Source of the DNA: Candidatus Nitrospira inopinata
Lineage (GTDB): Bacteria > Nitrospirota > Nitrospiria > Nitrospirales > Nitrospiraceae
Direction of reading: 5' to 3'
NCBI RefSeq assembly: GCF_001458695.1
Contig: NZ_LN885086.1
Location: 1,800,001-1,832,000, forward strand
Length of the DNA: 32,000 nucleotides
The notes beneath the pieces are model-generated. The model searched no databases and had not been told where the DNA came from. It saw only the letters and a program-made list of their open reading frames with translations. The translations under genes were made by a program, and so were the position numbers. Each line of letters opens with the position of its first letter. Position 1 is the first letter of the stretch. Of this stretch, positions 1 to 21,268 are shown piece after piece.

Positions 1-1171
1 CTCCTTCGATTGAGTAAATGGTGACGAAACGCTTGGCGAGGCCTCCCGACCTCTGGTCTTTGTCACCTGGCCGGAGAAGCATTTTCGTCACGGACATGAA
101 AGACCGCGCGGCCGCAACGGTAGACGTCTCAACTGGATGTCGGGGCATACAGCCAGGATCATCACCGGTGAGTTGAATGGGTTCGGAGGCTGAGCGGGAG
201 AAGAACTCTCGCTTCCCTTTCCCGACCCCAAGCTTGAAGCCGATCTTGCGGACGGTCGCGATGTGGCAGCGACTCTCAGGATGTTGAGCCAACAGTCTTC
301 GAATGACATGTACATGGGCGTCCAGAACCCTGGCGCCGATGGCAAAACCAGGTCCCCAGATGCGAGCGAGCAACTCATCTCTTCGGCACACGGCTGGATA
401 CGATTGCATCAAGGCCTTGAGGATGGCGAAGGGTTTGGCAGAAAGTCGAACCGGCTGGCCGGCGATTCGCACCTCGTGCTGGTCCCCGTCCAGCTCAATG
501 GCACCAATGCGGTGGATCCCGCGAGGGGGGATACGTCCTTTCAACCTCCGCAGGCAGGCGCCAACGGTGGCGGTTAAGAGCCGGGGACCGTCTTCCACAC
601 GATGAAAGCCGTCCACCCCACAGGCCACATCTTCCAGCAAGCGGTCTTCTGGATAGGAGCAGCCAGCGGGAACCACAGTGAGGAGCAGCACATGCCGGAG
701 CGTCGGCTCCGTGCGCATCATTGGCCAATCGTTGACTCGGCAATCCACGAGGACCAAAGAAGGGGCCAATTGCCTGCTGATCGAACATAGATGGCTGGTT
801 GTGACGGCGGAGCGAGTCACATATCCCGCGCGGCGCAGCACTACTTCGAGGTATCCGGCCAGGGTCTGGTCGGCCGAGAGCACGACCAACTCATTAGGTG
901 ATCTCCCATGAGCCGCGCTCTCTGGCCGGGGGAGCGGAACGCTCGGGGAGACAACCTCTTTATGCAAGGGAGCACTCAAGGACTTGATCGTGAATGGAAT
1001 GTCCAATCGTCCTTCCCCTTCCTTAAGCGACGCGGTGGCATGGTGGTCTGCTTGCTGGACAGTTCCTGGTTTCCGCTTGTGGGCGAGGAGACCTTGGAAT
1101 CGTGGAGAGTGGTTGTCCTTACCAGATTTGTTGGTCGATGGCTCCTTTCTGAGTGGTACGGCTCCCATCAT
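1..1171 (-). CDS. OmpR/PhoB-type winged-helix response-regulator-like protein with an atypical receiver. The 3' end runs off the left edge of the window.
   Basis: Absent from the ORF track because there is no stop inside the window. My hand translation of the minus strand (codons phased from 1171) is stop-free down to base 1. It reads NELVVLSADQTLAGYLEVVLRRAGY...SLVLVDCRVNDW...VLLLTVV (CheY-like receiver), then IGAIELDGDQHEVRIAGQPVRLSAKPFAILKALMQSYPAVCRRDELLARIWGPGFAIGARVLDAHVHVIRRLL...IATVRKIGFKL (winged helix). ATGATG at 1171-1166 is preceded by AGGAGA. An in-frame TTG at 889 sits next to the receiver and is an alternative start. At least 80 further codons follow the winged helix. Confidence 0.6.
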   Translation of the reverse strand, partial: MMGAVPLRKEPSTNKSGKDNHSPRFQGLLAHKRKPGTVQQADHHATASLKEGEGRLDIPFTIKSLSAPLHKEVVSPSVPLPRPESAAHGRSPNELVVLSADQTLAGYLEVVLRRAGYVTRSAVTTSHLCSISRQLAPSLVLVDCRVNDWPMMRTEPTLRHVLLLTVVPAGCSYPEDRLLEDVACGVDGFHRVEDGPRLLTATVGACLRRLKGRIPPRGIHRIGAIELDGDQHEVRIAGQPVRLSAKPFAILKALMQSYPAVCRRDELLARIWGPGFAIGARVLDAHVHVIRRLLAQHPESRCHIATVRKIGFKLGVGKGKREFFSRSASEPIQLTGDDPGCMPRHPVETSTVAAARSFMSVTKMLLRPGDKDQRSGGLAKRFVTIYSIEG

Positions 1172-1191
1172 CCGTCTCCTTGCGGCTCTTT

Positions 1192-1211
1192 CAAGACCTA
1201 ACAAGACCTAA
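1192..1211. repeat. Perfect tandem duplication of a 10-bp unit (caagacctaa x2) spanning the stop codon of the TonB-dependent receptor
   Basis: Read directly: 1192-1201 and 1202-1211 are identical. The receptor stop codon (TAG, 1210-1208 on the minus strand) lies inside the second copy. Confidence 0.9.
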
Positions 1212-3496
1212 TATGAGAGCGTCACAAAAAATCTGACGTTGTAGCCCGGCGCTTCTTGGCCAATCCCACCGCCGAAGCCGTTGTTCAAGAAATAGCGGGT
1301 GTTGGTCACGTTGTCGGCGGCGACGTTGAGGCTCAGCCAGTCATAAGGCTGATAGGAGGCGAACAGGTTGTGCACGACGTAACCGGCCTGCCGACCGATG
1401 ATCAGACCGGCCGCGCAGGGGGCCGTGACTTGAGCGGTCGAGCCGGTGATGACCAGCCGGCTGTCGACCGCTCGGATTCGATAGCCGTATTCCAGCCGGT
1501 GGCCGAGATCGCTCCGCCCTACGGTGAAGACGAGTGTATCGCCTGGAATGTCAAACAGATCTCGCTCGCCTTCGCACACCTGCTTGCCCCGCACGCCGGA
1601 GAGAGCCAGATTGCTGAACCAGTGGTCGGTCCGAAATCCCATCTCGATTTCCAGTCCCTGCCGATACTCTTCCCCGTCCTGCGTGAAGCTCGTGCAGATG
1701 CGGTTGGGCAGCGAAAAGTTGAACGGCTCGCATCGCGCGCCGGTGGCCGTGCGCGCCATGAGCGAATAGAGGGTATGGGCCACGTGAATGCGGTAGTACA
1801 CCACCTTGGCCGTCAGCAGGGTGCCGGGCGCAAACAATCCCGGATAAGACAGCGAAAGTCCGAACTCATGGTTGCGAGCGGTCTGGGGAACGTAGCGATC
1901 GCCGCAGACGCCGGAATCGGGAGCCAGTCGCCCGAAGAGAAAGCGATTGCAGCGGCTGAACGGACCTTGCGTGAAGTATTCGTCGACGAGCGGAGGGCGA
2001 AAGGCTTCGGCGTAATTGTAGAACGCCGTCAAGGGGCCGCCGAACATATTCCAGGCGATCCCGGCGGCCGGAGCGGTTTTCCCGAACTCGATGACGGGAC
2101 TTCGACCTTCCGCCCGCAAGAGATCACGGGTTTCCTGCGCGTCGACTTCGGTCTTATAGGTGTCATGCCGGAGACCGGCGGTGAGGCTCACGTGGCCGAC
2201 GTCAAGACGATTTTCAATCATGTACGCAAGAAAAGCTCTCGTGCCCGACGGCTGACTCAGATTGTCCACCGTTTCACGCCGGCGGGTGCCGGGGTTCAGT
2301 CGTTCGGTCGTCGTTTCGCGGGCGTTCCGGTTGTACTGGACGCCGTAGGTGACGGTATTGAGGATTGGCCCGACACGCAGCGCCGTCGTATTGGTGACAT
2401 TGAATGTGGCGATGCGGTAATCCCAAAAATTCGTCGGCGAATCGAGGATGGGGATACCCCTGGCGCTCTGCCGATCGGAATCCGTGACGCTTGTGCTGGT
2501 GTAACCCGCTGCTCCCTTGAGAGTGATCCAGCGGGAAAGCAGCGGCGAGGCCGGTGTATACTCTAGGTTCGCGGTGGAAGTGCTGTCCGCCACGGCGCGG
2601 CGCACAAAGCCGAAGACACCGGGGATGCCGATCGTCGCGTCGAACGGTTGTAACGTCTCCTCCTGAAGATAGGTCTCTCCCAGCGAGAGGCTTGTGCTGG
2701 GCCTCCATCGGTAGGTCGCTTTCGCCAATCCGCTCAACCGGTTCGACGTCGAGTTCGGCAATTCGTTGCCGCTTGCCGTTCTGATGTTGTCCGAATCCCG
2801 CCACGTCACGTTGGCAAGCAGATCGAGCGCGCCGAACGCCATCCCATAGGTGCTGCCCGAGACAAGCGTTTCCATGTTGTTACTGGAAAACCCCGACTTG
2901 GCGCGAGCCCCGAACCGCTCGCCGGGACGGAGAAGATCGGCGGCGTCTTTGGTCCGCATCTCCACCGCGCCGCCGATGGCGCCGGACCCTTGCAAGACCC
3001 CGGCGGGCCCGCGCGTGACTTCGATCTCTTTGAGCAGTTCCGGCTCGATGAAGACCCCGCTGCCGGAGCGGTATTTTTCGAAATTGCGGACGGCGCCGTC
3101 GAGTTTGAGCAGCACGTCCTCGGTGTCGTTGAATCCCCGAATGTTGAATTTCATGCCGCCCATGAGGGGCCCGCCGTCGGTCGCTACGCCGGGGGTGTCT
3201 TGGAGAACGGTGAAGACGTTGTCCGCCTGCCGCCGATTGAGCTCCCGACCGGTCACCGTCGTGCGTGAGCGCACCGGATCGACTTCAACGGCGTCTCGTT
3301 TTCCTTTCACTTCCACCTCCGCCAGCACCAGTGACGGATCCTGATCCGTATCCAGTTCGTCGTCCGGTTGCGGAGCTCCCTCGACGGCGTGATCCGCTGC
3401 GTGGCCCATCCCGCCGCCGATCGCGCCCGGTATCAGCAACACGATCGCGCTGAATGCCGCTCCACGGAGTATATGGTTCATGCCGCTGGGGGGCAT
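1208..3496 (-). CDS. TonB-dependent outer-membrane receptor
   Basis: 762-aa ORF. N-terminal signal-like segment (AAFSAIVLLIPGAIGG). Plug-domain motifs (DTPGVATDGG...NIRGF...LLKLDGAVRNF...IEVTRGPAGVLQGSGAIGGAVEM). Long beta-barrel region with an AFRPP(L) box and a C-terminal aromatic residue (FFVTLSY). An alternative ATG is at 3481. Confidence 0.9.
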   Translation of the reverse strand: MPPSGMNHILRGAAFSAIVLLIPGAIGGGMGHAADHAVEGAPQPDDELDTDQDPSLVLAEVEVKGKRDAVEVDPVRSRTTVTGRELNRRQADNVFTVLQDTPGVATDGGPLMGGMKFNIRGFNDTEDVLLKLDGAVRNFEKYRSGSGVFIEPELLKEIEVTRGPAGVLQGSGAIGGAVEMRTKDAADLLRPGERFGARAKSGFSSNNMETLVSGSTYGMAFGALDLLANVTWRDSDNIRTASGNELPNSTSNRLSGLAKATYRWRPSTSLSLGETYLQEETLQPFDATIGIPGVFGFVRRAVADSTSTANLEYTPASPLLSRWITLKGAAGYTSTSVTDSDRQSARGIPILDSPTNFWDYRIATFNVTNTTALRVGPILNTVTYGVQYNRNARETTTERLNPGTRRRETVDNLSQPSGTRAFLAYMIENRLDVGHVSLTAGLRHDTYKTEVDAQETRDLLRAEGRSPVIEFGKTAPAAGIAWNMFGGPLTAFYNYAEAFRPPLVDEYFTQGPFSRCNRFLFGRLAPDSGVCGDRYVPQTARNHEFGLSLSYPGLFAPGTLLTAKVVYYRIHVAHTLYSLMARTATGARCEPFNFSLPNRICTSFTQDGEEYRQGLEIEMGFRTDHWFSNLALSGVRGKQVCEGERDLFDIPGDTLVFTVGRSDLGHRLEYGYRIRAVDSRLVITGSTAQVTAPCAAGLIIGRQAGYVVHNLFASYQPYDWLSLNVAADNVTNTRYFLNNGFGGGIGQEAPGYNVRFFVTLSY

Positions 3497-3497
3497 T

Positions 3498-3527
3498 GGC
3501 GTGGCCCCTGTTTGAGGCGGCCACGCC
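3498..3527. other. 9-bp inverted repeat (ggcgtggcc / ggccacgcc, 12-nt loop) between the PEP-CTERM gene and the receptor gene
   Basis: Read directly at 3498-3506 and 3519-3527. No U-tract follows on the minus strand, so it is not a canonical intrinsic terminator. It could be an mRNA processing, stability or attenuation element. Confidence 0.3.
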
Positions 3528-3550
3528 GCCGCGGACGCGCGCTGAAATCC

Positions 3551-4279
3551 TTAGGCTGCTTGTCTCTTGCGTCGAGCCATCGTCGCGAGGCCGATGATGC
3601 CGGAGCCGAACAGATACACCGCGCCGGGCACCGGGATAGGCGCCGGCGATCGTCCAGGACCGATGTCGATCGAGAGCTGGTCCAAGCTGACGCTGGACCC
3701 TACGGCGTTCCACGTGATTCGGAACGACGAGGCGTTCGGCACTCCCAGCCATGACACGAGCGCTTCCACCTCGTTCCCACCGAAACCGCCTACGACGGCC
3801 TCGTTGTACAGCAGCGAATAGGTGCCGCCGATACCGTTCAAGAGGAAGTTCGTGAAGCTGCGATTCAGCGAGACGTTGAATTCACCCACCGACCCTAGAC
3901 GCAAATAGACGTCACGGGTGTCGGATGGCGCCCCGCCCATGTTGCCGATGGTGAATTCGAAGGCGATTGGCGCGACGGGGCTGTAGATATTGCCTCCGCT
4001 GGTAAGGAACGCGGCGCCGGTGAGTTCTTCCAGCCTGTAGGTGCCGCCTCCGAAGTTGGCGACTTCCGGCGTGGTGTCTTGAATGTTTCCACCGGGAATA
4101 TTGTCGTTAAAGACGTTCCATTCGGCGTAGAGGCTGCCGGGTGTGACGCCTCGTGTCCACCCTGCGGGGGTGAAGTTGACATCCCACACGGCCTGTGTCG
4201 CCTGGGCCGTCTGACCGGAGGCGAAACAGAGCCCTAAACCGAGAATGCCGCTCGTCAACAATGACTTCATACTGTTCAT
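3551..4279 (-). CDS. Secreted protein of unknown function with a C-terminal PEP-CTERM-type sorting signal
   Basis: Start chosen at ATG 4279 (AGGAG 8 nt upstream), giving MNSMKSLLTSGILGLGLCFASGQTAQA as a signal peptide. The C-terminus PVPGAVYLFGSGIIGLATMARRKRQAA has the P-x-P motif, a hydrophobic helix and a basic cluster typical of PEP-CTERM/exosortase substrates. Confidence 0.75.
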   Translation of the reverse strand: MNSMKSLLTSGILGLGLCFASGQTAQATQAVWDVNFTPAGWTRGVTPGSLYAEWNVFNDNIPGGNIQDTTPEVANFGGGTYRLEELTGAAFLTSGGNIYSPVAPIAFEFTIGNMGGAPSDTRDVYLRLGSVGEFNVSLNRSFTNFLLNGIGGTYSLLYNEAVVGGFGGNEVEALVSWLGVPNASSFRITWNAVGSSVSLDQLSIDIGPGRSPAPIPVPGAVYLFGSGIIGLATMARRKRQAA

Positions 4280-4407
4280 GTCTCTGACTCCTTTCAGTAC
4301 GTGATGATCGATCTTCACGTCTCATCCTCAGAGGCCGTGCGATCAATGGTGTTCACTGTGTGCCAACGGGCAACGGGCCCGCCCCGTCTGCCACCGTCGA
4401 ACGGTTT

Positions 4408-4641
4408 TTACGAGAGCGTTCCGTACACTCGTGCATCCTCCTTTCTCTTCCCGTTCGCCAGATCCGGATAGTCCACGACAAATCGATATTGCCGCCCACA
4501 ATGCAGGATGACTTCCTTCTGCCCTCGCTTAAGGAGGCGAATTTCCACCCGCAGCTCCGCGAACCCGTCGTGCGCGAACAGGTCGTCATAGATGGCGGAA
4601 AGACGGGATTTGACCTCCTCGTTCCTGACATGCGCGGACAT
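4408..4641 (-). CDS. Small (77 aa) cytoplasmic-looking hypothetical protein
   Basis: ORF with GGAGAG upstream of the ATG. Balanced, non-Arg-biased composition (…IYDDLFAHDGFAELRVEIRLLKRGQKEVILHCGRQYRFVVDYPD…). No signal peptide and no family recognised. Confidence 0.55.
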   Translation of the reverse strand: MSAHVRNEEVKSRLSAIYDDLFAHDGFAELRVEIRLLKRGQKEVILHCGRQYRFVVDYPDLANGKRKEDARVYGTLS

Positions 4642-4753
4642 GGTGCTCTCCGGTTGTTCAGACGACGAAAGCTGGCTGGCGACTGGACGAGACGGCTCTG
4701 GTGCCGAGGCTGGTCCCCTCTTGTGAACCGCTCACCTTCCTTTTGCCCCCGGT

Positions 4754-6442
4754 CTATGGCCGAACCTGCGCGGCCTGCTCATCCCGCGACGTCAGCTCAG
4801 CCGTGAGCCTCGTCAGCCCATCCTCAATCCAGCGGGTCAACGCCGGATCGACCAGTCCTCTATCATTCAGCTCAAAATTCAACCCTGCCAGCATGTGTCT
4901 GTACGGCCCTGCTCCATACAGCCGATGGGCGATGACCAACACGCGGCCCTCTCGGCTGGCCTCCTCGATGGTGGCCCGGACGGTGGCGACGGCTTTCTCG
5001 CGTTTGTCCGGCCAGTCTTCCCGCACGGTGAGCGCCCTGATGTCTTTGAGCTTGGCGCAGTGGGGCTCTTGGCGGAGGCGCGCGATGTGTTCGTTCATGA
5101 CGGCGATCCACCGGTTGTCCCCTTCGTCGGTCCCATCGCCGTGGGCCAGCAGCAGGACTGTCTCTTCCGTCGGGTCCTGGCTCAGTTCGGCGATCCGTTT
5201 GTGAAGCACCGTGGCGATGTCGGGATTCTGCTCATAGCCGCCGAAGGTCGAAAAGGTAACGGCGGTGCGAACCTGGGGTGGCGCGCCGGCCGATCCGTGC
5301 CCGCCGTCGTGATCGTCGGCAGGTGGATGATCGCTCAAGCCGAGAATGTAATCGGTGAGCGACTTCATGTGATGATCCAAGGCGTACAGCCGGACAAAGA
5401 CCACATGTCTGATGCCGCGTTGTTCCAGACGGGAGACCGCATCCTGAATGATGAACGGGTCTCCCATGCCATAGGCCATCTCAATAGGGTACTTGGCCAT
5501 GAGCGGCCGGATCGTCGCTTCGACCGCGTCGTTCCACGGTTGGGTCGATCCGTGGGGCATCACGACAACGCCGATCTGCTCTGCGGCCAGGGGCATTTCG
5601 CGGTTGGCGGTTTTCTTGAGCCACAGCAGCGCGTTCGGATGGGGAAGCAATTCCTCCGGTCTGTAGGCGACGCGGGTGTTGCCGAATTGAGTCCCCAGCC
5701 AGGCCGACAGCGACATGGATGAATCCAGTTTTGGGCCGATGAAGGCGGGAATCACGAGGGTTCGGCCCGCTTTCGCCGCATGGGACATGATGCGAGCCAA
5801 AGCCGCGTCGTTTTTTTGCCGCGCTCGGTCTGCGTCTCGCTCATAGAGAATGACGGCTTCGGTCTCGCGAAAGGCGCGATAGCGGTTCACGTAGGCCAAC
5901 AGACGATGCAGATCCGTTTTTATGGCCTGTTCACTGGCTTCGTCGACCGCTCCGGTTCCGACGAGGATCACCCGCTCCGTTTCAGGATGCTCGCTGAGAG
6001 CGGTGATGCGATCCAGCACGATTTGAGCGATCAGGTAATCGTGCGCCATGGGGGGAGCCCATCGCACGGGGAGTTCGTCGGCGTAAGCCGGTAACAGCGG
6101 CTTGATGCGCGCGAGCAACGGGTCAGACTCCGACACAAACAGGGGAATCGCCACGATTTCCGTGACGCCGGCTTCTTTCAATGACCGAGCGGCCCTCGTC
6201 AGATAGGAAGCATAGTCTCCCTTGACTCCCGTCTCGTCTCGCCCGACGAAGCCAAGCGCCACCGGATAGGTTTGCTTGAATTCATCGACCAGGGATGAGA
6301 TTTCCTTGTTGCCGAGATATCCCCGATCGGGAGCGAGCACCAGGAATCCTACTTTGGAGGGAGCGGCCTCGGCCGCCGCGGCCTGAACACCGAGCGCAAA
6401 CAGGAGGGTCGTTGCGTATCTCGTGATGGTCTGTCGGGACAT
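4754..6442 (-). CDS. Secreted multi-domain CbiX/SirB-like (class II chelatase fold) protein with four tandem half-domains
   Basis: Start chosen at ATG 6442 (AAGGA 8 nt upstream), giving MSRQTITRYATTLLFALGVQAAAAEAA as a Sec-type signal. There are four repeats of the CbiX half-domain pattern: VGFLVLAPDRG…EIVAIPLFVSESD; RVILVGTGAVDE…TLVIPAFIGPKLD; IGVVVMPHGSTQPWNDAV…HVVFVRLYALDHHM; TVLLLAHGDGTDEGDNRW…RVLVIAHRLYGAGPY. Only the last two keep the HG(S/D) histidine motif. Confidence 0.75.
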   Translation of the reverse strand: MSRQTITRYATTLLFALGVQAAAAEAAPSKVGFLVLAPDRGYLGNKEISSLVDEFKQTYPVALGFVGRDETGVKGDYASYLTRAARSLKEAGVTEIVAIPLFVSESDPLLARIKPLLPAYADELPVRWAPPMAHDYLIAQIVLDRITALSEHPETERVILVGTGAVDEASEQAIKTDLHRLLAYVNRYRAFRETEAVILYERDADRARQKNDAALARIMSHAAKAGRTLVIPAFIGPKLDSSMSLSAWLGTQFGNTRVAYRPEELLPHPNALLWLKKTANREMPLAAEQIGVVVMPHGSTQPWNDAVEATIRPLMAKYPIEMAYGMGDPFIIQDAVSRLEQRGIRHVVFVRLYALDHHMKSLTDYILGLSDHPPADDHDGGHGSAGAPPQVRTAVTFSTFGGYEQNPDIATVLHKRIAELSQDPTEETVLLLAHGDGTDEGDNRWIAVMNEHIARLRQEPHCAKLKDIRALTVREDWPDKREKAVATVRATIEEASREGRVLVIAHRLYGAGPYRHMLAGLNFELNDRGLVDPALTRWIEDGLTRLTAELTSRDEQAAQVRP

Positions 6443-6459
6443 GGCGTTCATCCTTGGCC

Positions 6460-7542
6460 TCATCGATCGAATTCGTTGAGTCGGTAGCGAATGGGGACCA
6501 CGACCGTGATCTTGGGCTTGTTGAGAGCTTGCGTGAGAGGGAGAGGGCAAGCCCTCCGCATCAGTCCCAGCGCGTCGTCATCCAGCACTCCGTAACCCGA
6601 GCTTTTCGTCACTGCCGCGTTGATCAGATGGCCGTCCTTGTCGATCGTCGCCTTGACGACCACGATTCCTTCCCATCCGCGCTGGCGAGCCAGAGGGGGG
6701 TAGGCTTGGAGGCGCACGATCCGGTTTCTCAACAGCTCCATCAGCCATCCATAGTTCGGTTTGGAAAGAGCCGTCCGTGTGACGGACGGTGTGAGAGGAG
6801 AATGGCTGAGCGTGTCCAGGTCCGTTTGACCCTCCGCGTCAAACGAGTCCGAGACGGTTGGCGAACGGGGAGGGGAAGAATCGGACGGTCGCTCGTCGCG
6901 TCGAGTTTGATCCGATGAGGCAACGTCTTGCCGATCCGACGGAAGCGGGTCGGCAGGCGATGGATCGGCAACGACGGGTTCCAGGCGACTCGGTTCTTGA
7001 ACGAGGGAATGAGTCAGGGCATGAACCGGTTCGATCGATGGAACCGGCTGAGTCTCGACGGGGCCGTTATCTGTCCGATGAAATGGTTCAGTCGGCGCAA
7101 CATCGGCCCGCCGCGCGACGTCGTGCGTAGGGACTGCGTCGGTTGACCGAAGCGGTGGCGCGGTCGCGTGAGAAGGCGGGGTGGACCGGCGTCCTTGGTC
7201 CATAGCGCGAGTCGGGAGCGGAGGCTCCGCCGGAAGATCCGGCGGAGCCTCCCGCGTCGGCCGGTTGAGAGGAGGAGAGGAGACCGGCTGACTGCCTGAT
7301 GGAGCAGTGTCACTGTCCGAGTGATCGGGACCTGGCTGTGCCTCTGAAGGTGACAAGAGCACCAGCTCCAGGTGGAAGTCTTGAGGCGGGGGAGGAGGCA
7401 TCTGAGTCAAGAGGCCGGCTGCCGCAATGATGAGGGCCGCATGGACCGTGACGGACGTTGCCCAGCCGGACAGTCGCCCGCGGCGGCGGATCATCGTGAA
7501 GGATGCTCGGCATAAGGGGACCATTGCAGACGCAGTGGACAT
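6460..7542 (-). CDS. tonB: TonB family energy-transducer paralogue with no adjacent exbBD
   Basis: N-terminal TM segment with an S-x3-H motif (SVTVHAALIIAAAGLL). Very long Pro/Ser/Asp-rich linker. C-terminal TonB domain (YPPLARQRGWEGIVVVKATIDKDGHLINAAVTKSSGYGVLDDDALGLMRRACPLP…VVVPIRYRL). Confidence 0.85.
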   Translation of the reverse strand: MSTASAMVPLCRASFTMIRRRGRLSGWATSVTVHAALIIAAAGLLTQMPPPPPQDFHLELVLLSPSEAQPGPDHSDSDTAPSGSQPVSSPPLNRPTREAPPDLPAEPPLPTRAMDQGRRSTPPSHATAPPLRSTDAVPTHDVARRADVAPTEPFHRTDNGPVETQPVPSIEPVHALTHSLVQEPSRLEPVVADPSPADPLPSDRQDVASSDQTRRDERPSDSSPPRSPTVSDSFDAEGQTDLDTLSHSPLTPSVTRTALSKPNYGWLMELLRNRIVRLQAYPPLARQRGWEGIVVVKATIDKDGHLINAAVTKSSGYGVLDDDALGLMRRACPLPLTQALNKPKITVVVPIRYRLNEFDR

Positions 7543-7569
7543 GATCTAATCGTTTATGGAATTGAGTCT

Positions 7570-7588
7570 AATTCTCATAATCATGTTC
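7570..7588. promoter_or_regulatory. Fur-box-like operator upstream of the tonB paralogue
   Basis: aattctcataatcatgttc matches GATAATGATAATCATTATC at 13/19 positions. It lies in an AT-rich island 28 nt upstream of ATG 7542. A fur gene is present in the window. Confidence 0.5.
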
Positions 7589-7622
7589 TAGAGCTTATAC
7601 TGGGGCATCAGGTCGAAGAGCC

Positions 7623-7659: not shown

Positions 7660-8334
7660 TCACGGGCAAGAACACAGAGAGGAGCACGGAGGCGTGCGTT
7701 GATCCCGCCGGATCATGGACGAGCGTGAGGACGAGGTCAGGCGCTTGCTCGCCATTGTTCCAAGTGTTCTAAGGAAGGTCAGTCCGGAGAGCAACAAAGT
7801 CAGTGCGCCGGGCAGGGGCACGGCGGAGACCCGATAGTTGAACCTGTAGGTCGTATCACCTTCGGTTTCCTGGTGCCAAAAACTGTAGGCGCCTGGTCCG
7901 AGAGGGCCGCCGGCGAGAAAGGCGAGAAGATCGTCGCCGACCGAAAGGCCGGGCAGCGCGCCGATCAAGGCCCACCCGCTGACGTCGGTAAATCCCATGC
8001 CGCGAAAATGGTCGCCCCTCGTCCAACCGAAAAACGATTGGTCGTCGGTGTTGGTGTAGGCGGCGAGGACGATTGCGTCCAGCGAGTGGCCGCCGGGAAT
8101 CGTGATGGTGAAAAAATCTCGATCCAGCGTCGGCAGGTGCGTGGTCGATCCCAGGATCAGGTTGTCGCCAACGGCAAGCGAGATGGTTGTCGGTCTCGCA
8201 TGATCATCTGAGAAGTCTCCATGAACAGCTTCATTATGAACAATGGCCGCTTCGGCGTTGAACGAGAGCAGGCTCACGCCGGCAATGACCAGGCTACCAA
8301 CCGCGCCGAACATTCCGTATGTCCTGTTTCTCAT
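7660..8334 (-). CDS. Secreted protein with a PEP-CTERM-like anchor and an unusually long basic tail
   Basis: Start at ATG 8334 (AGGAGGA upstream), giving MRNRTYGMFGAVGSLVIAGVSLLSFNAEA as a signal peptide. The body contains a DRDFFTITIPGGHSLDAIVL-type beta-sandwich-like segment. The C-terminal VPLPGALTLLLSGLTFL helix is followed by a 36-aa Ser/Arg-rich tail rather than an immediate stop. Confidence 0.7.
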   Translation of the reverse strand: MRNRTYGMFGAVGSLVIAGVSLLSFNAEAAIVHNEAVHGDFSDDHARPTTISLAVGDNLILGSTTHLPTLDRDFFTITIPGGHSLDAIVLAAYTNTDDQSFFGWTRGDHFRGMGFTDVSGWALIGALPGLSVGDDLLAFLAGGPLGPGAYSFWHQETEGDTTYRFNYRVSAVPLPGALTLLLSGLTFLRTLGTMASKRLTSSSRSSMIRRDQRTPPCSSLCSCP

Positions 8335-8712: not shown

Positions 8713-9216
8713 TTATAAGACCGTGAGTGTGGCGACCATGCCGAGTTGGTAATGGCTCACTTTGGTTGTGTTGATTTCGGTTTCGGGCGCCTGGTCGTTG
8801 TTCTCGACGACCGCGCAGAACAGCGCGTACTTGCCTGGTGTCAACGTCACCGACTTCGATTGTGTGGCATGGGGAGGCAGATCGGTCTCTTCGATTTCGT
8901 CGATGACGGTGCCGGAGGCGCTCTCATCCACGACCCCGTCTTTTAGAGGCATGGTACCTGGAGTCACCCCGGCATTGAGCTTCAGAATGACGAGTTCGTG
9001 AGGGAGAGTGCCGGTATTGGTCACCCGAAAGGTGACCGACCCGGATGACACCATGGTGTTATCCGTCACGACCGCCCACTCCCTGAGCGTGACGTTGACG
9101 GTCGTGCCTACCGGGGCTTGCTGAGCCGGTACCGGGGGCTTGTCGCTTTGGCCGCAGCCGGTCAAGCCGGCGAGCAAGGTGAGCCACAGCGGGGCGGAGA
9201 ACAACTTCTTATTCAT
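8713..9216 (-). CDS. Cupredoxin-like lipoprotein
   Basis: Lipobox LLAGLTG-C. Strong SD (GAAGGAGG). Cupredoxin_1-like pattern: VTFRVTNTGTLPHELVI…TLTPGKYALFCAVV…SHYQLGMVATLTVL. The candidate His/Cys/His/Met ligands are present, but 20 residues separate Cys from the second His. Confidence 0.75.
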   Translation of the reverse strand: MNKKLFSAPLWLTLLAGLTGCGQSDKPPVPAQQAPVGTTVNVTLREWAVVTDNTMVSSGSVTFRVTNTGTLPHELVILKLNAGVTPGTMPLKDGVVDESASGTVIDEIEETDLPPHATQSKSVTLTPGKYALFCAVVENNDQAPETEINTTKVSHYQLGMVATLTVL

Positions 9217-9386: not shown

Positions 9387-10559
9387 CTACCGCCCCGGCG
9401 CTTGCAAGGCGGTTACCAGCGGAACGCGGGCGGCCCGTATCGCCGGCGGGAGGCCGCCCAACAGGCTGATGAGCAAGGAAAAGCTCAGGGTCGCGGCGGC
9501 CGATGGCGGTGTCAGGGTGAGGCGGAACGCCACTTCGGCAAAGGTGCTGAAGTTCATCGTCGAGAGGGTGACGAATTGCAGAGCGGCCCCGCCGGCCAGG
9601 GCCAAGGCTCCCGCTGTCGCACCGATAATGAGGGATTCAATAAGAAAGACAAAGCAAATGGAGGTGGGGACAAAACCCAGGGCGCGCAACGTCCCGATTT
9701 CTCTCGTGCGCGCCGCGACTGCTCCGTACATGGTCATGGTGCCGCCCAACAGGGCGCCGATCGAAAAGATCGTCGTGAAGGTGAATCCCAGGACCCGAAT
9801 GAACGTGGCCAGGGTCACGGATTTTTCTCGATAGTAGTCCCGTTCCCGCTTCACCTGGAGCATGAGGCGCGGATCGTCCGCAATGAGTCGATTGAGCGGT
9901 TCAAACGCGGCCTCGTCCGAGAGGCGAAGCGTCAGCGAGGAGTAGGATTCTCGTCCATAGGCCGCCATCAGGAGGTCCACGTCTCCCCAGATTTCCGATT
10001 CGAACGCGGTGCCGTCAGCGGTCATGATGCCAACGACCTGCCAGTCGCGTTTGCCGACGCGCAAAGCGGAGCCGATGCCGTGAGGCAGAAAACGGGAGGC
10101 GATTTGAGAGCCCACGACGATCTCCGCCGTTCCCGGCTGCCATGGGCGTCCCTCGACCAGACGGACTTGCGGCCGCAACGTAAACGCCATGGGATGCGTG
10201 CCTCGGACCGTGACGTTGACCGGCGCCTCCCCTCCGGTTTTCGTCAGGCTGACTAAGACGACCAACTCGGCGAGCGCCACGGGGTTGCCGTCCGTATCGG
10301 ACGCGATGCCCGGAAGCGAGCGGATGATGTGAGTTTGATTTCGATAGAGGCCGCTTGCGATTTCCGTCGTGGCTCCCTGGCGGAGCAACAGGACGTTGGT
10401 CGGTGATCCGCTATCAACCAACGCGCGCGTCAGGCCGTCCCCGATCATCAACACGCTCAAGAAAATAAGGCTGACCAGCCCCATGCCTATGACGGTGAGC
10501 ATGGTCGTTCGACCGCGCGACCAGGCGTTTCGGACGCTATAGGCCAACAAGAGTTTCAT
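9387..10559 (-). CDS. ABC transporter permease, FtsX/MacB type
   Basis: Start at ATG 10559 (MKLLLAYSVRNAWSRGRTTMLTVIGMGLVSLIF). N-terminal TM helix, large periplasmic domain and a C-terminal three-TM FtsX module (…REIGTLRALGF…). Confidence 0.85.
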   Translation of the reverse strand: MKLLLAYSVRNAWSRGRTTMLTVIGMGLVSLIFLSVLMIGDGLTRALVDSGSPTNVLLLRQGATTEIASGLYRNQTHIIRSLPGIASDTDGNPVALAELVVLVSLTKTGGEAPVNVTVRGTHPMAFTLRPQVRLVEGRPWQPGTAEIVVGSQIASRFLPHGIGSALRVGKRDWQVVGIMTADGTAFESEIWGDVDLLMAAYGRESYSSLTLRLSDEAAFEPLNRLIADDPRLMLQVKRERDYYREKSVTLATFIRVLGFTFTTIFSIGALLGGTMTMYGAVAARTREIGTLRALGFVPTSICFVFLIESLIIGATAGALALAGGAALQFVTLSTMNFSTFAEVAFRLTLTPPSAAATLSFSLLISLLGGLPPAIRAARVPLVTALQAPGR

Positions 10560-10569
10560 GGCGAACGCC

Positions 10570-11739
10570 CTATCCGATGTGCCGGAGATCGTCGGCGACA
10601 TTGCTCCGGAGCGCGGTGACAAGCGGAATCGCGGCCGCGCAGCAGGCCGTGATCAGGGTGGCCAAAGCGCCGAGCACCAACGTGCTTGGATAGACGACAA
10701 GCTGCTGAAAGAAATTGCCCAACTTGGTCGAGACTAAGGTGGCATACAGATCGATAGCCGGGATGGTCATGGCGATTCCCATAATCGATCCGAGGGCGGC
10801 GATCAGCAACGCCTCGCCGGTAATCAGAGCCGCCAGATGGCGACGTTCAAAGCCGAGGGTTCGAAGGACCGCCCATTCCCTTGTCCGTTCGCGCACGGCC
10901 ATGACCAGGGTATTGGCCAACACCAGCAGGGTGACACCGTTCAGCACGACCGCGAGCAGCTCCAAGGCGCGCACGATCGATCCCGACATGGCCACGAAGC
11001 CGGCCTGAAAGGCCTGCTCGGTCTCGGTCCTTGTTTCGGCGACCGAATTGGCGAAGGTGTCATCGACCGCGCGCGACAGGGCTCCGGCCGTGGAGGAGTC
11101 CGCGATCCGCAACACGTACCAGCCGACGGTGTCGGCGCGATCGGGATCAAATTGCCGGCGGCGTTCATTGACAGAGTCCCAACGGATCAGCATCCAGTTT
11201 TCATCGGTGGAGGGCTCGGTTCCCCGGTAGATGCCTCGGACGATGAATTCCCAGTCGCCTGGATACAGGGTGCCTTTGAGGGGAATCACGTCGCCGACGC
11301 GCCAGCCGTACAGATCGGCCAGACGTCGGCCGATGAGACAGCCCCGGCGGTCGCTCAAGAAGTCCCGTCGCTCGCCGGGATCGAGCATCAACTCGGGGTG
11401 CAGGTCGAGGAACGACTCCGGATCGACGGCGAACTGGGGAAAGAATCCCTTGGCGTCCCGATAGACTCCCCCGAACCAATTGGCGAACGTCACGCCGGTG
11501 ATACCATCGATGGCGGCCAGACGGTCCCGGTACGAAAGCGGCAGGTGAATCGACAGCGATGCCGCGTGGCGTGTGATCAACCGGTTCGGGGCGGCTGCCT
11601 CCACACCGGCATACCAGGCTCGAACCGTGGTGATGATCAGGTTGAACGCCAGAATGATCGTGGCGATCCCCAAAACGGTGAGAGTCACCCGCAGGACCTG
11701 CCGATGCGCGTTGCGAATGATGAGGGTTACCAGCGTCAT
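10570..11739 (-). CDS. ABC transporter permease, FtsX/MacB type (second copy)
   Basis: [32 protein letters not shown]… followed by a periplasmic domain and an FtsX module (RTREWAVLRTLGFERRHL). The start overlaps the ATPase stop as ATGA. Confidence 0.85.
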   Translation of the reverse strand: MTLVTLIIRNAHRQVLRVTLTVLGIATIILAFNLIITTVRAWYAGVEAAAPNRLITRHAASLSIHLPLSYRDRLAAIDGITGVTFANWFGGVYRDAKGFFPQFAVDPESFLDLHPELMLDPGERRDFLSDRRGCLIGRRLADLYGWRVGDVIPLKGTLYPGDWEFIVRGIYRGTEPSTDENWMLIRWDSVNERRRQFDPDRADTVGWYVLRIADSSTAGALSRAVDDTFANSVAETRTETEQAFQAGFVAMSGSIVRALELLAVVLNGVTLLVLANTLVMAVRERTREWAVLRTLGFERRHLAALITGEALLIAALGSIMGIAMTIPAIDLYATLVSTKLGNFFQQLVVYPSTLVLGALATLITACCAAAIPLVTALRSNVADDLRHIG

Positions 11740-12422
11740 CGGCTCGACCCCTTTCCCTTGTCGACATGAAGGACGGTCTCCGCGTACTCCGCCACAAACG
11801 GATCGTGGGTCACCATGACGATGGTTTTGCCAAGTTCCCGGTGCAGGCGACGGAGCAAGGTCATGACGGCCTCGGCCGCTTCCCGGTCAAGGTTGCCGGT
11901 GGGCTCGTCCGCCAGAAGGATGGTCGGGTCGCCGACGATCGCCCGGGCGATGCCGACGCGCTGCTCTTGTCCTCCCGACAACTGGCGTGGGTAATGGTCG
12001 AGTCGATCGCCCAGCCCGACCAGCTCCAGCGCCGCGCGAACGCGTTTGGCCCGTTCAGATTTGGAGAGAGAACTGAGCAGCAGGGGCAGTTCGACGTTTT
12101 CAGCGGCCGTAAGGACCGGGATGAGATTATAAAACTGAAACACAAATCCGATGTGTCGGGCCCGCCAGCGGGCAAGCTCGGTCTCCCGCTGTCGAGAGAC
12201 CTCCATGCCGGCGACGCGAATGGTTCCATTAACGGGGCGGTCCAGTCCGGCGATGAGATTCAGGATCGTGGTCTTGCCTGATCCGGAAGGACCCATGACG
12301 GAGAGAAATTGTCCGTTGGGAACCGACAAGTTGAAGTTTCGGAGCACGGGAATCTCCTGGTCCCCACGGACGTAGGATTTCGTGACGTGGCAACATTCGA
12401 TCACCGGTTGGATTATCACCAT
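11736..12422 (-). CDS. ABC transporter ATP-binding protein (MacB/LolD-like)
   Basis: Walker [10 protein letters not shown], signature [14 protein letters not shown], Walker [13 protein letters not shown] and an H-loop (VTHD). Start chosen at ATG 12422, preceded by AGGAG. Confidence 0.9.
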
Positions 12423-12438
12423 CCACTCCTTTCGTGTG

Positions 12439-13677
12439 TTAACGGACTGAGCCGGCACGGACACGGGTGCCGTTTGTGAGTGAAGAAGGGGGCATGAGAA
12501 TCACTCGCGCGGTTGATGACAAATTCCCCCGCACCTCACTGTCTGAGTTTTGCCGCAAGACTTCTTCGACGGCGACTTCCCGTGCGACGTCATGGTCCAG
12601 CACATAGAGGACGGTTCGGTTTTCTTTTGTAATGAGAGAAACGGCCGGGACCAAAAACCGAGGCGATTCCCCGGAGCCTGATTGAGCCGAAGGCAAAAAA
12701 GACACCTTGGCGCTCATCTCCGGCAGCACGCGATCGTCCAGGTCGAGGAACCGGATCTTCGCCGACACGGTGCCTTTCGATCGATCGGCCGTAGGCACGA
12801 TCTGTTCGATCGTGCCTTGGTATCGGACGCCGGGCAGGGCGTCCAGCGTGATCTCGGCCGGACGGCCCGGCGCGACCTTGGTAATGGCGGATTCGGAGAT
12901 ATCCACTTCCACGGCGAGCGTCGCCATGTCTCCGATGAGCGCGACCGCCCCCCGCGCGTTGGTGGCGCCGGCCATCGGGGCCACGATTTCACCGACCTCG
13001 GCGAACTTTTTGAGCACGATGCCATCGAACGGCGCCCGGATCTTGGTGTTTTCCATCATGACGTCGGCCGTGAGCACGTCCGCTTCCGCGGCGGCAATGG
13101 CCGCGGAAGCGGATCGCACTGAGGCTTCGGCCTTTCTGAGGCGATTGGCTGCGACGTCGAACTCGGATTGAGAAATGAACTGATCTGGCAACAGGGCCTT
13201 GGCTCGGTCATAGGCCAATCGGGCGTCTTGCAACTCAGCCCGGGCATTTTCCAGTGTCGCGTGCGCCACTTCGAGCCTGGCGCGGGCTTGCCGTTGCAAA
13301 GCCAGCATGTCAGCCTGTTCGATGCGGGCGATGACCTCCCCCGCTTTCACGCGGCTTCCGATGGCGATGCCGAGATATTCAAGGCGGCCGGTTCCCTTGG
13401 ATGCGACCGAAGCCTGGCGCTGGGCGACGACGTAGCCGCTGGCCGTCAGAGGAGCTTCAGCGGATGTTCCCCCGATCAATCGCACGGGCGCCGTGTCCAC
13501 TTCGAGAATCGGCTCCGAGAGAGGAAGCAACCGAACCAGCGCCGGCACGATCAGGCCCACGGCCACTGCTCCCGCGAGCCGTTTCCTCCACGACCCTGGT
13601 CGGCCGGAGGGAGGCGGCTCTTCCCGAGGCATCCGCAGAATCGAAAGATCGACGTCACCTGAAGGAGGAGGAGTCAT
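12439..13677 (-). CDS. HlyD/MacA-family periplasmic adaptor
   Basis: Start at ATG 13677, which overlaps the AraC stop (ATGA). TM anchor (LAGAVAVGLIVPALV). Lipoyl-like and coiled-coil segments (GEVIARIEQADMLALQRQARARLEVAHATLENARAEL…IRAPFDGIVL). The longer 571-aa track ORF is an artefactual 5' extension across the AraC gene. Confidence 0.85.
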   Translation of the reverse strand: MTPPPSGDVDLSILRMPREEPPPSGRPGSWRKRLAGAVAVGLIVPALVRLLPLSEPILEVDTAPVRLIGGTSAEAPLTASGYVVAQRQASVASKGTGRLEYLGIAIGSRVKAGEVIARIEQADMLALQRQARARLEVAHATLENARAELQDARLAYDRAKALLPDQFISQSEFDVAANRLRKAEASVRSASAAIAAAEADVLTADVMMENTKIRAPFDGIVLKKFAEVGEIVAPMAGATNARGAVALIGDMATLAVEVDISESAITKVAPGRPAEITLDALPGVRYQGTIEQIVPTADRSKGTVSAKIRFLDLDDRVLPEMSAKVSFLPSAQSGSGESPRFLVPAVSLITKENRTVLYVLDHDVAREVAVEEVLRQNSDSEVRGNLSSTARVILMPPSSLTNGTRVRAGSVR

Positions 13678-14243
13678 TGAGAAAGGCTCTGTTGAGGCTT
13701 TGTGGTTGAAGACGGTTGGCGCCGGGCGTGCGTCGCGCGAAAGGCCCGCGGCGAGAACCCCGTCGCCCGCTTGAAGAAATGACTGAACGAAAATTGATCG
13801 CTGAACCCAACCGATGCGGCGATGTCCCCGATTGATTTGTCGGTGGTCAGAAGCAAATCGGACGCGATTTCCGCCCGCCGCCGCGCGAGATAGCGAGAGA
13901 ATGGTTCTCCCATCACGGAACGAAACAGCTCGGAGCAGTATTTTTCGGAATATCCCAACCACTCGGCCAAGGTTTTGAGCGTGGGACCCTGATGGAGGCT
14001 GGAGGAAAGAAACGTCGCGATCCGGGTCGCAAGATCGTTGGAGGCCTGGGCCTCCTCGCGAAGCGGCCGGTCGACGGAGGACAGGTCGAAGAGCTTGCAG
14101 AGCACGTCCAAAAATTCCCGATCGGTCGTCGCGCTGGACAGGCGATCGGCCCACCGGGGCGCATGGCGTCGAAGTTGCGTGATGAGCGTTTGCAACTGAT
14201 CAAATCGCGCGTCGGCTCTTTTCTGTCTTTCCATGATGACCAC
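13674..14243 (-). CDS. AraC-family transcriptional regulator (short, about 186-189 aa)
   Basis: C-terminal double HTH (LKTLAEWLGYSEKYCSELFRSVMGEPFSRYLARRRAEIASDLLLTTDKSIGDIAASVGFSDQFSFSHFFKRATGFSPRAFR). The track start at 14243 is a GTG; an ATG follows at 14234. Confidence 0.85.
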   Translation of the reverse strand: MVIMERQKRADARFDQLQTLITQLRRHAPRWADRLSSATTDREFLDVLCKLFDLSSVDRPLREEAQASNDLATRIATFLSSSLHQGPTLKTLAEWLGYSEKYCSELFRSVMGEPFSRYLARRRAEIASDLLLTTDKSIGDIAASVGFSDQFSFSHFFKRATGFSPRAFRATHARRQPSSTTKPQQSLSQ

Positions 14244-14829: not shown

Positions 14830-15531
14830 TTATCGTCTACCTCCATGGGGCGGACTTGCCGAAGCGCTGTGCAAGCCCCTTTCCGACGCCACCCAGAGCT
14901 TTGCCACCACCATCGGGTCGAATTGCGTTCCCGCCGCGACGCGCAGAATTTTGAGCGCGATGCGGTCACGAAGGGAGCGGTCTTGCACGCCGGGGACGTG
15001 AATCGCTTCAAAGGCGTCGGCCACGGCCAGAATTCTCGCGCCGAGGGGAATGAACTCTCCGCGGACGCCGTAGGGATAGCCGCATCCATCCCACCATTCG
15101 TGGTGATGGGCGATCAGAATCGCCGCTTGCCTCAAGAAGACGAACGGTTCAAGCAAATTGGCGCCAAGCCGGGAATGGTGCTGAAGGGCGACGTACGATG
15201 AGGGATCAAGTGGTTCACATCCCTGTCTGAGCGGCTCCGGCACCATGAGGAGGCCGATGTCGTGCAGCAGGGCGGCGAGCTTCAGATCATGGAGCGCGGT
15301 CGCGTCAAGTTCGAACGCTTCTCCGATCAGGCAGGCGACGACGGCGGTCCGTTCGGCGTGACCGGCCTGCCAGGGCAGGGCGCGGTCGAGCTCTTTGCTG
15401 ACCTGCCGGACCAGAATGCTTTCGACGTCTCGGCGCGAAGCCGCCGGCAGGCGGAGACGATCGATCTTGCCCAGCAGCCGTTGAATCTTCAACACGGCCG
15501 GCTCGACGTGTGCGACAGAATCAGTGCGCAT
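14830..15531 (-). CDS. HD-GYP domain protein (predicted c-di-GMP phosphodiesterase)
   Basis: Start at ATG 15531 with AGGAGGA upstream. Motifs LHDIGLLMVPE, HHSRLGANLLEP and IAHHHEWWDGCGYPYGVRGEFIPLGARILAVADAFEAI. Confidence 0.85.
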   Translation of the reverse strand: MRTDSVAHVEPAVLKIQRLLGKIDRLRLPAASRRDVESILVRQVSKELDRALPWQAGHAERTAVVACLIGEAFELDATALHDLKLAALLHDIGLLMVPEPLRQGCEPLDPSSYVALQHHSRLGANLLEPFVFLRQAAILIAHHHEWWDGCGYPYGVRGEFIPLGARILAVADAFEAIHVPGVQDRSLRDRIALKILRVAAGTQFDPMVVAKLWVASERGLHSASASPPHGGRR

Positions 15532-15544
15532 GGCAGTCCTCCTG

Positions 15545-15583
15545 AAAAACGGAGCCCAGGACCACGGTTGTGATCCTGGGCTC
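15545..15583 (-). terminator. Intrinsic-terminator-like hairpin abutting the HD-GYP ribosome-binding site
   Basis: Perfect 10-bp stem gagcccagga (15552-15561) / tcctgggctc (15574-15583) with a 12-nt loop. On the minus strand it is followed by CGUUUUUC and then directly by AGGAGGA. Confidence 0.55.

Positions 15584-20096: not shown

Positions 20097-21268
<1,172 letters not shown>

Follow-up and report, generated by a model that had tools for sequence, protein, structure and literature searches.

A candidate haem acquisition locus of Candidatus Nitrospira inopinata pairing a TonB-dependent receptor with a tandem chelatase-fold protein predicted to be exported

In the Bacteroidota, a hemophore and a receptor are encoded by hmuY and hmuR together with hmuS, whose product, a homologue of class I chelatases, has been shown to produce protoporphyrin IX (PPIX) and Fe(II) from haem (PMC12583661). 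In Porphyromonas gingivalis, the IhtA receptor is paired with IhtB/FetB, a CbiK-like haem-binding lipoprotein that has been proposed to be a reverse ferrochelatase (PMC12094164), and in Escherichia coli deferrochelation by EfeUOB/EfeB and YfeX has been described, as has the efflux of PPIX by MacAB-TolC (PMC3577903, PMC4263509). The genes NE1538-NE1543 of the nitrifier Nitrosomonas europaea were treated in a 2024 transcriptome as an operon of hypothetical proteins, 'possibly iron homeostasis', and NE1538, NE1539 and NE1540 were down-regulated together (PMC10781756); in a second transcriptome, NE1540 was listed as 'fecA' and was down along with other iron-uptake genes. A stretch of 32,000 nt from Candidatus Nitrospira inopinata (contig NZ_LN885086.1, positions 1,800,001 to 1,832,000; here the window) was found to carry a locus in which the gene for a 562 amino acid (aa) chelatase-fold protein, termed CBX4, stands between a tonB gene and the gene for a TonB-dependent receptor.

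An earlier note on this DNA had outlined six co-directional minus-strand genes, all of which were recovered as open reading frames (ORFs) at the positions given there. No description of the CBX4 family, or of its pairing with haem receptors, was found in the open-access literature searched, which agrees with the remark in that note that the gene combination was not recognised as a described system. The locus is proposed here to acquire haem in a TonB-dependent manner with the help of a chelatase-fold accessory, and there is a realistic chance that this accessory represents a new enzyme class.

CBX4 and its haem-type partners

CBX4 gave a marginal match to the Pfam CbiX family (PF01903, 24.3 bits with a cut-off of 22) and weak NCBIfam matches to the nickel chelatase CfbA. 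A search of the PDB sequences with CBX4 as a single sequence returned nothing, and chelatases were reached only by a family profile and by a fold search. The profile, made from 37 diverse members, matched SirB (6jv6, E 5e-10), CbiX(S) (6m25, E 1.5e-6) and FetB (E 9e-4). The AlphaFold2 model, built on 24 homologues, had a predicted local distance difference test score (pLDDT) of 80 and a predicted template modelling score (pTM) of 0.78, and Foldseek aligned it with SirB from Bacillus subtilis (5zt7; TM 0.65, target-normalised) and with the periplasmic CbiK of Desulfovibrio vulgaris (2xvz), and further with FetB/IhtB of P. gingivalis (9b86), Salmonella CbiK (1qgo) and HemH. When residues 28-285 were compared with residues 286-548 using hhalign, the two parts matched each other (99.6 %, E 5e-25, 237 columns), and each of them matched a complete two-lobed CbiX. 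An internal duplication, giving two tandem SirB/CbiX-like class II chelatase units and the four CbiX half-domains recognised earlier, is thus confirmed at the level of sequence comparison.

The N-terminus of CBX4 (MSRQTITRYATTLLFALGVQAAAAEA, followed by AP) reads as a Sec signal peptide. Comparable signals occur throughout the family, replaced in some members by a lipobox, and the earlier assignment of CBX4 as a Sec-exported protein is therefore well founded as a prediction. In databases, the homologues are named 'sirohydrochlorin ferrochelatase' or 'cobalamin biosynthesis protein CbiX'; because of the export signal and the gene context, this name is almost certainly wrong for the family.

The residues invariant in the family are D39-R40-G41, M243, H297-G298, H434-G435, R474-E-D-W477 (REDW) and R507. 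D39-R40-G41 takes the place of the HGS motif in unit 1, which has APDRG instead, and H297-G298 belongs to the HGS motif of unit 2, with H297 equivalent to His10 of SirB. The invariant H297 and H434 are in opposite lobes of unit 2. Half-domains 3 and 4 are separated by a disordered, His-rich loop (residues ~376-388, pLDDT <50), and the loop at this position is His-rich, and sometimes Met-rich, in most family members, with runs such as GHGHGHH and GMMHGMG. A resemblance of this loop to the metal-binding tails of long CbiX proteins, and to the Met-rich insertion reported for HmuS, was also noted.

The family includes 823 representatives at 50 % clustering (E up to 1e-3), with full-length homologues down to ~25 % identity, and 303 relatives are present in GTDB species genomes. 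The nearest relative, 98 % identical, is from a Nitrospira metagenome-assembled genome (MAG). Gene neighbourhoods were compared in the 80 closest loci (L numbers below stand for loci or contigs), which were chosen by their similarity to the Nitrospira query, and enrichment in nitrifiers cannot be read from them. They come from Nitrospira and Nitrospirales, Ca. Manganitrophaceae, Nitrospina, Nitrosomonas (N. europaea among them), Nitrosospira and Nitrosovibrio, and also from gammaproteobacterial MAGs, Methyloversatilis, Balneolaceae, Bacteroidota, Spirochaetia, KSB1, Latescibacterota and Opitutaceae. In 49 loci the flanking sequence reaches 5 kb or more on each side, and in 43 of these a TonB-dependent receptor gene lies within 7 kb of CBX4, mostly adjacent and on the same strand; the neighbourhood thus recurs in other genomes. 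A protein in the representative library (P0165, 828 aa) consists of a full-length CBX4 homologue running in frame into the plug domain of a receptor; it may be a genuine fusion or the product of a gene call that read through, and in either case it is independent evidence that the two genes are adjacent.

The receptor in the window scored 273.9 bits on the haem receptor model TIGR01785 (cut-off 316.85), its best family by far, with 116.9 bits for the siderophore family, and among solved structures it is closest to ShuA, PhuR and HasR. The receptors paired with CBX4 elsewhere include members above the cut-off, i.e. NE1540 with 550.8 bits and the receptor of the marine Nitrospirales locus L010 with 406.2 bits, and the haem-model scores of CBX4-paired receptors are far above those on B12, copper and siderophore models. 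A signalling receptor of the FecIR type was ruled out for the receptor that follows CBX4 in the window, as it reads as having no N-terminal signalling extension.

Genes for lipoproteins with an HmuY domain (PF14064, E 1e-13 to 1e-19) stand beside CBX4 in 14 loci, mostly between the receptor and CBX4. These loci span Gammaproteobacteria, Nitrospirota, Bacteroidota, Balneolaceae, Spirochaetia and Dadabacteria (at least six phyla), and in the cultured Aliifodinibius salipaludis the receptor, HmuY and CBX4 genes are contiguous. Many of the HmuY lipoproteins are fused to a cupredoxin domain (e.g. L018 14949-16481, L028, L029, L031, L034, L038 and L042), the cupredoxin coming first in Nitrospirota and HmuY first in Gammaproteobacteria; we know of no earlier description of this architecture. 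The lipoprotein with a cupredoxin domain encoded in the window (PF13473, E 2.6e-6; N-terminal region of EfeO, E 1e-6) is homologous to the HmuY-fused domain (E 1e-23 to 1e-10), and the His/Cys/His/Met ligand set of type-1 copper is kept in both the stand-alone and the HmuY-fused forms.

HemP genes were found in 12 proteobacterial loci, including NE1541. In the window, the 77-aa ORF between CBX4 and the receptor (S77) gave no Pfam or NCBIfam match and had been described earlier as a protein of unknown fold. It is not wholly an orphan, having the HemP-like core KEVILHCGRQYRFVV, which aligned by hhalign with HemP from 11 loci (82.6 %, E 9.7e-6, 22 columns); the core of HemP/HmuP (PF10636) reads EV.I.H.G..Y.LR.T...KLILTK, and S77 lacks the KLILTK tail. 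S77 is kept at the same position in L001, L003, L005-L008 and L053, and the core is suggestive of a small cytoplasmic protein of the HemP/HmuP kind.

An Rfam scan of the window revealed no cobalamin riboswitch and no family at gathering score. Considered jointly, the haem-type receptors, HmuY, HemP and the lack of a cobalamin riboswitch make haem the most likely substrate. The earlier suggestion of tetrapyrrole or metal capture is sharpened to haem by these partners and by the Fur-like boxes described below.

Additional recurring neighbours were seen. In 11 marine Nitrospirales loci (L010-L014, L016, L017, L019, L024-L026), a membrane protein of ~1000 aa is encoded between the haem-type receptor and CBX4, and carries a spermine/spermidine-synthase-like domain and C-terminal TPR repeats (e.g. 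L014 6709-9789). In Nitrosomonas and a number of related loci (the cluster is present in 10 loci), genes for DUF2325 proteins stand on either side of CBX4, receptor and hemP; examples are NE1538 and NE1542 (L085 6602-7921 and 12418-13161), and none occurs in the window.

Fur-like boxes and organisation of the locus

The whole 32-kb window was scanned for matches to the Fur-box consensus GATAATGATAATCATTATC at a threshold of at least 13/19, and the counts were compared with those in local shuffles. Ten matches were observed, as against 1.4 in the shuffles (~7-fold enrichment). Eight of them fall at four sites beside iron genes (Table 1) and the remaining two are within coding sequence, at 1105-1123 and 26234-26252. 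Upstream of tonB, overlapping Fur-like 19-mers in a 6-nt register were found at 7558, 7564 and 7570, on both strands, with 12-13 matching positions; a TATAAG hexamer resembling a -10 element precedes the array closely, and the tonB ATG follows 16 nt further on. The AT-rich Fur-like box reported earlier in front of the operon is hence real as a sequence feature, with matches of up to 13/19.

A Fur-like box also precedes tonB in L009, in L049 and in L005, where it is the same as in the window. The match in L004 is inside the called tonB gene, a 13/19 match in L008 is at the ORF start, and no convincing box (nothing above 12/19) was detected before tonB in L001, L003, L007 and L032. Such a box is, as far as the scan can tell, not universal upstream of tonB among orthologous loci. 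In N. europaea, a 15/19 match is located upstream of NE1538, the first gene of the operon.

Table 1. Features of the window in the order of the minus strand
Feature	Position	Strand	Basis or remark
fur-family gene	24023-24475	minus	
Fur-like box	23965-23983		upstream of fbpA
fbpA/B/C-like ABC importer	20097-23938	minus	
Fur-like box	20041-20065		upstream of exbB
exbB	19574-20005	minus	
exbD	19210-19584	minus	
Second tonB	18335-19213	minus	
Fur-like box	18152-18179		by second receptor
Second receptor	15827-18226	minus	FecA/siderophore type
HD_5 (HD-domain) protein	14830-15624	minus	
AraC-family regulator	13674-14243	minus	first gene before the pump genes; HTH_18, E 2.8e-22
MacB-type tripartite pump	9387..13677	minus	Pfam
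Membrane-fusion protein (pump)	12439-~13677	minus	
ABC ATPase (pump)	11736-12464	minus	
FtsX/MacB_PCD permease (pump)	10570-11739	minus	
FtsX/MacB_PCD permease (pump)	9387-10622	minus	
Cupredoxin lipoprotein	8713-9216	minus	PF13473; lipobox LTGC
PEP2, second VPLPA-CTERM-type protein	7660-8334	minus	weak FxDxF PEP-CTERM match
Predicted Fur-like operator	7558-7588	minus	upstream of tonB; consensus matches 12-13/19
tonB	6460-7542	minus	ORF, TonB_C domain
CBX4, chelatase-fold protein, 562 aa	4754-6442	minus	ATG at 6442
S77, 77-aa ORF	4408-4641	minus	ORF
PEPC, 242 aa, VPLPA/PEP-CTERM-type protein	3551-4279 (alternative start to 4318)	minus	ORF
TonB-dependent receptor, 762 aa	1208-3496	minus	Plug and barrel domains
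OmpR/PhoB-type regulator	1-1171, running off the window edge	minus	Trans_reg_C

With the iron genes and boxes following one another along the minus strand and a fur-family gene at their head, positions 24475 to 1 can be regarded as one long iron-acquisition island. Within the six-gene block, the reported gaps of 17 nt (tonB-CBX4), 54 nt (PEPC-receptor) and 36 nt (receptor-regulator) are correct, and the middle gaps are wider, i.e. 112 nt between CBX4 and S77, and 128 nt between S77 and PEPC (89 nt from the GTG start). The upstream genes from PEP2 to the AraC-family regulator are on the same strand. In the near-identical contig L005, the regulator stops two codons past window position 1 and is followed by a signal-peptide-bearing CbiX of 312 aa, canonical-looking and with VNHGSR and PVFLAVSPH motifs, and then by a PepSY_TM-like membrane protein. 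The Nitrospira cluster therefore overruns positions 1-7590 at both ends, and only CBX4 and the receptor form a core conserved across phyla, so that the earlier six-gene block does not stand as the unit. The full layout, seen only in close Nitrospira relatives (L001, L003, L005, L007, L008 and L053), begins with AraC, the membrane-fusion protein, the ABC ATPase, two FtsX permeases and, in brackets as it were, the cupredoxin and PEP2, and continues with TonB, CBX4, S77, PEPC, receptor, regulator, 312-aa CbiX and PepSY_TM. The HD_5 gene recurs near CBX4, in another arrangement, in marine Nitrospirales (L011, L013, L015-L017, L019, L020 and L024-L026).

TonB of the window (PF03544, E 1.7e-15; TIGR01352, E 6.5e-18) has an N-terminal membrane anchor, a Pro-rich spacer and the TonB_C domain, and a TonB gene is directly upstream of CBX4 in L001, L003, L004, L005, L007, L008, L009, L032, L049 and L053. 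Two sub-threshold Rfam matches to small RNAs in the tonB coding sequence (7218-7318; Pyrobac-1, 29.4 bits, and ar14, 26.9 bits) are most likely due to chance. The MacB-type pump genes are directly upstream of tonB-CBX4 in L001, L003, L004, L005, L007, L008, L009 and L049, and partly in L048 and L058; the AraC gene precedes them in the same order in L001, L003, L004, L005 and L008.

PEPC and PEP2 both read as exported proteins. The tail of PEPC comprises the motif IPVPGAVYLFGSGIIGLATMARRKRQAA, with IPVPGA, a hydrophobic stretch and RRKR. On the VPLPA-CTERM model TIGR03370 it scored 18.6 bits, under the cut-off of 25.35, and its homologues are named VPLPA-CTERM or carry PF07589. In the AlphaFold2 model (pLDDT 86) PEPC forms a beta-jelly-roll, for which no structural relative was convincing; the Foldseek matches were weak and of a generic jelly-roll kind (Eph ligand-binding domain, TNF-like, CBM; E >1e-3). 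In Nitrosovibrio (L078) and in a JGI contig unrelated to it (L086), the gene next upstream of a haem-type receptor encodes a PEPC homologue, and PEPC is therefore probably a receptor accessory and a candidate surface partner. PEP2 has only the C-terminal sorting region in common with PEPC (hhalign 93.8 %, 29 columns), and its orthologue occupies the same place in L003 and L005. The possibility that PEPC or PEP2 is a disguised HmuY hemophore was ruled out by hhalign (0.9 % and 0.4 %).

The regulator of the window contains a Trans_reg_C winged helix (E 3.8e-17) and gave no Pfam Response_reg match. On alignment with PhoB, the equivalents of E9, D10, T83 and K105 were seen to be lost and only D53 to be kept, and there is no kinase gene nearby. 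It therefore deserves the description 'atypical' given to it before, and by its residues it is an orphan of the OmpR/PhoB type with a degenerate pseudo-receiver. The regulator gene also follows the receptor directly in L001, L003, L005, L007 and L053. Three orthologues (L001 16763-18163, L003 15325-16950, L007 10910-12322) have N-terminal extensions of 100-250 aa with hydrophobic segments, missing in the window version, and may be membrane-anchored sensors.

Proposed haem handling and the rival explanations

It seems likely that the locus serves haem acquisition and that CBX4 is the partner that handles haem in the periplasm. When iron is limiting, the Fur-like operator (7558-7588) would become free and tonB and the genes behind it would be expressed. 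The surface protein PEPC, anchored through its VPLPA/PEP-CTERM tail, could aid haem capture by the haem-type receptor, and the dedicated TonB would power import into the periplasm, where the substrate, which we infer to be haem in Nitrospira, would reach CBX4. CBX4 would bind haem and, most likely, run the chelatase reaction in reverse to give Fe(II) and PPIX. The type-1-copper cupredoxin lipoprotein may supply a redox step, the favoured option being reduction of ferric haem (cf. the ferrous-haem reaction of HmuS) and the alternative being oxidation of the released Fe(II) for import of the FbpABC type; the FbpABC of the same island could import the released iron and the MacB-type pump could expel the porphyrin. 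The HemP-like S77 and the OmpR-type regulator with its pseudo-receiver may tune expression.

No haem ABC permease or ATPase, haem oxygenase or HemS-type gene was seen in the cluster or in the other loci examined, which bears out the earlier statement that the block has neither a haem ABC importer nor a haem oxygenase. Redox partners recur near CBX4, namely the cupredoxin, the multicopper oxidase NE1543 and PepSY_TM. Because of this lack of haem importer and haem oxygenase genes, the invariant H297 and H434, the His/Met loop, the redox partners and the pump, extraction of the iron in the periplasm would be the most economical explanation. On the whole, the evidence inclines somewhat towards a locus that obtains iron from haem under the control of Fur, with CBX4 acting on haem in the periplasm, probably by de-chelation. 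Taken specifically, the de-chelatase activity of CBX4 is a tentative proposal made by analogy, and the wider proposal, that CBX4 is the founder of a widespread group of periplasmic class II 'reverse ferrochelatases' that strip iron from haem with the help of a cupredoxin and a PPIX-expelling pump, is a doubtful one.

Several points weigh against haem-iron extraction by CBX4 or against the locus as drawn here. The canonical chelatase active site, judged by residue conservation, is not intact in the family, because the second metal ligand of SirB, His76 (its equivalent being H357/H358 in CBX4), is not conserved and in most members is replaced by Ser or Asp; in unit 1 neither SirB His residue is left. 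The window contains no HmuY, HmuS, HmuT, HmuU or HmuV and no clear HemP, and its receptor is under the TIGR01785 cut-off. Six of the 49 well-flanked loci, i.e. the Nitrospina loci, Methyloversatilis and one Nitrosospira, have no receptor nearby; no Fur-like box was found before tonB in L001 and L003; and the two gaps of more than 100 nt inside the block weigh on its reading as a single transcript. The roles given to the cupredoxin and to the MacB pump are analogies only, and the role proposed for the CBX4 family is drawn from comparison.

As unit 2 has only part of the SirB His pair and unit 1 none of it, a role in haem binding only is a serious rival. CBX4 would then be a non-catalytic periplasmic shuttle, buffer or store that hands haem on intact to an unlinked inner-membrane importer or to the maturation of haemoproteins in the periplasm, and could be likened to the haem-binding CbiK(P) and to the class III periplasmic binding proteins with their chelatase-like fold. 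The presence of periplasmic CbiK (2xvz) and FetB (9b86) among the structural matches agrees with such a protein, which the pairing with haem-type receptors, HmuY and HemP would suit equally well. It is nonetheless considered rather unlikely: the genes that would take haem further are missing from the cluster and the other loci examined, the His/Met loop and the redox partners (cupredoxin, multicopper oxidase, PepSY_TM) are unexpected for a simple shuttle, and the Nitrospira cluster has a second, canonical-looking exported CbiX.

The His-rich loop, the weak CfbA matches and the cupredoxin and multicopper oxidase in the neighbourhood could also indicate the import of something other than haem, i.e. 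a corrinoid, another metallated tetrapyrrole or a metallophore for Cu, Ni or Co, with CBX4 as a periplasmic metal or corrinoid chaperone. This would fit the demand of nitrifiers for copper and the chemistry of CbiX/CfbA, which concerns cobalt and nickel, and the sub-cut-off score of the window receptor leaves room for it. It is improbable, however, given the HmuY and HemP partners in other phyla, partner receptors that score far higher on haem than on B12, copper or siderophore models, and control elements that are Fur-like boxes beside a fur gene, with no cobalamin riboswitch or other Rfam element. The function implied by the database names and by the PF01903 score just above its cut-off, that of a sirohydrochlorin ferro- or cobalto-chelatase of sirohaem/B12 biosynthesis with incidental transport neighbours, is close to refuted, since the signal peptide or lipobox is family-wide, the active-site His pair is not conserved, and the neighbours across phyla are receptors, TonB, HmuY and HemP and not tetrapyrrole-biosynthesis genes.

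Nitrifiers are haem- and iron-rich, iron is often limiting in wastewater and in the ocean, and most nitrifiers make no siderophores. Should haem acquisition with de-chelation by CBX4 be true, a Fur-controlled module of haem receptor and exported double chelatase would be a new route of haem-iron harvesting, and could explain how nitrifiers without siderophores meet a very high iron demand; the CBX4 module is present in Nitrospira, Nitrospina, Nitrosomonas, Nitrosospira and at least ten other lineages. It would amount to haem piracy in aerobic chemolithoautotrophs, among them ammonia oxidisers (Nitrosomonas, Nitrosospira), nitrite oxidisers (Nitrospira, Nitrospina) and Ca. Manganitrophaceae, and in many further phyla, independent of haem oxygenase and of haem transport across the inner membrane, and would give a function to a family of more than 800 representatives (50 % clustering) now mis-annotated as sirohaem/B12 enzymes. 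The concept of haem de-chelatases, established only recently, would then cover class II chelatase folds in addition to class I (HmuS), and aerobic autotrophs of the environment in addition to anaerobes of the gut. The hypothesis is directly testable in N. europaea, which can be cultured and manipulated genetically and has the minimal version in NE1539/NE1540.

Comparison with described systems

The periplasmic CbiK(P) of D. vulgaris (2xvx, 2xvz), cited in the earlier note as the precedent, is like CBX4 an exported protein with the class II chelatase fold; it binds haem and was a top structural match. It differs in being a single unit that retains the cobaltochelatase residues, with an identity of ~14 % to CBX4, and to our knowledge it has no pairing with a TonB-dependent receptor, HmuY or HemP. 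Closer precedents exist in IhtA/IhtB(FetB) and in HmuY-HmuR-HmuS.

In the Iht system, an extracytoplasmic class II chelatase fold is likewise combined with a TonB-dependent receptor, and FetB (9b86) was both a structural and a profile match. IhtB, however, is a single-unit, surface-exposed lipoprotein of the outer membrane, whereas CBX4 is a double unit with a plain Sec signal and presumably periplasmic, and the iht operon has its own ABC importer, IhtCDE, which the CBX4 cluster lacks. De-chelation by IhtB is itself a proposal. With the Efe/YfeX proteins, the role proposed for CBX4 shares extracytoplasmic removal of haem iron that leaves the porphyrin intact. Further likenesses are a partner with a cupredoxin domain, the N-terminal domain of EfeO being similar to the window cupredoxin, and a MacB-type pump that could dispose of PPIX; EfeB is a DyP peroxidase and not a chelatase fold, the CBX4 cluster has no EfeU permease, and the link to the pump is here one of conserved adjacency only.

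NE1539 of N. europaea is a true CBX4 homologue (~32 % identity over the full length) and is followed by the haem-type receptor NE1540, hemP (NE1541), the DUF2325 protein NE1542 and the multicopper oxidase NE1543. Unlike the window, the NE1538-NE1543 operon lacks genes for TonB, for a PEP-CTERM protein, for a regulator of the OmpR type and for a MacB pump, and with its genes described only as hypothetical it offers no function that could be carried over to CBX4.

The Hmu system (hmuY-hmuR-hmuS-TUV) belongs to anaerobic haem auxotrophs, whereas the nitrifiers considered here as hosts of CBX4 live aerobically and synthesise haem themselves. HmuS is a class I protein (CobN/ChlH-like), large, bound to the membrane and dependent on NADH, and CBX4 a soluble, exported tandem of class II with no sequence relation to it. 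Both nevertheless bring together a TonB-dependent haem receptor and an accessory protein of the chelatase superfamily without a haem oxygenase, and in 14 CBX4 loci HmuY is present as well, in the order receptor, HmuY, chelatase-fold protein. The proposed logic would also be the same, the iron being extracted and PPIX left behind.

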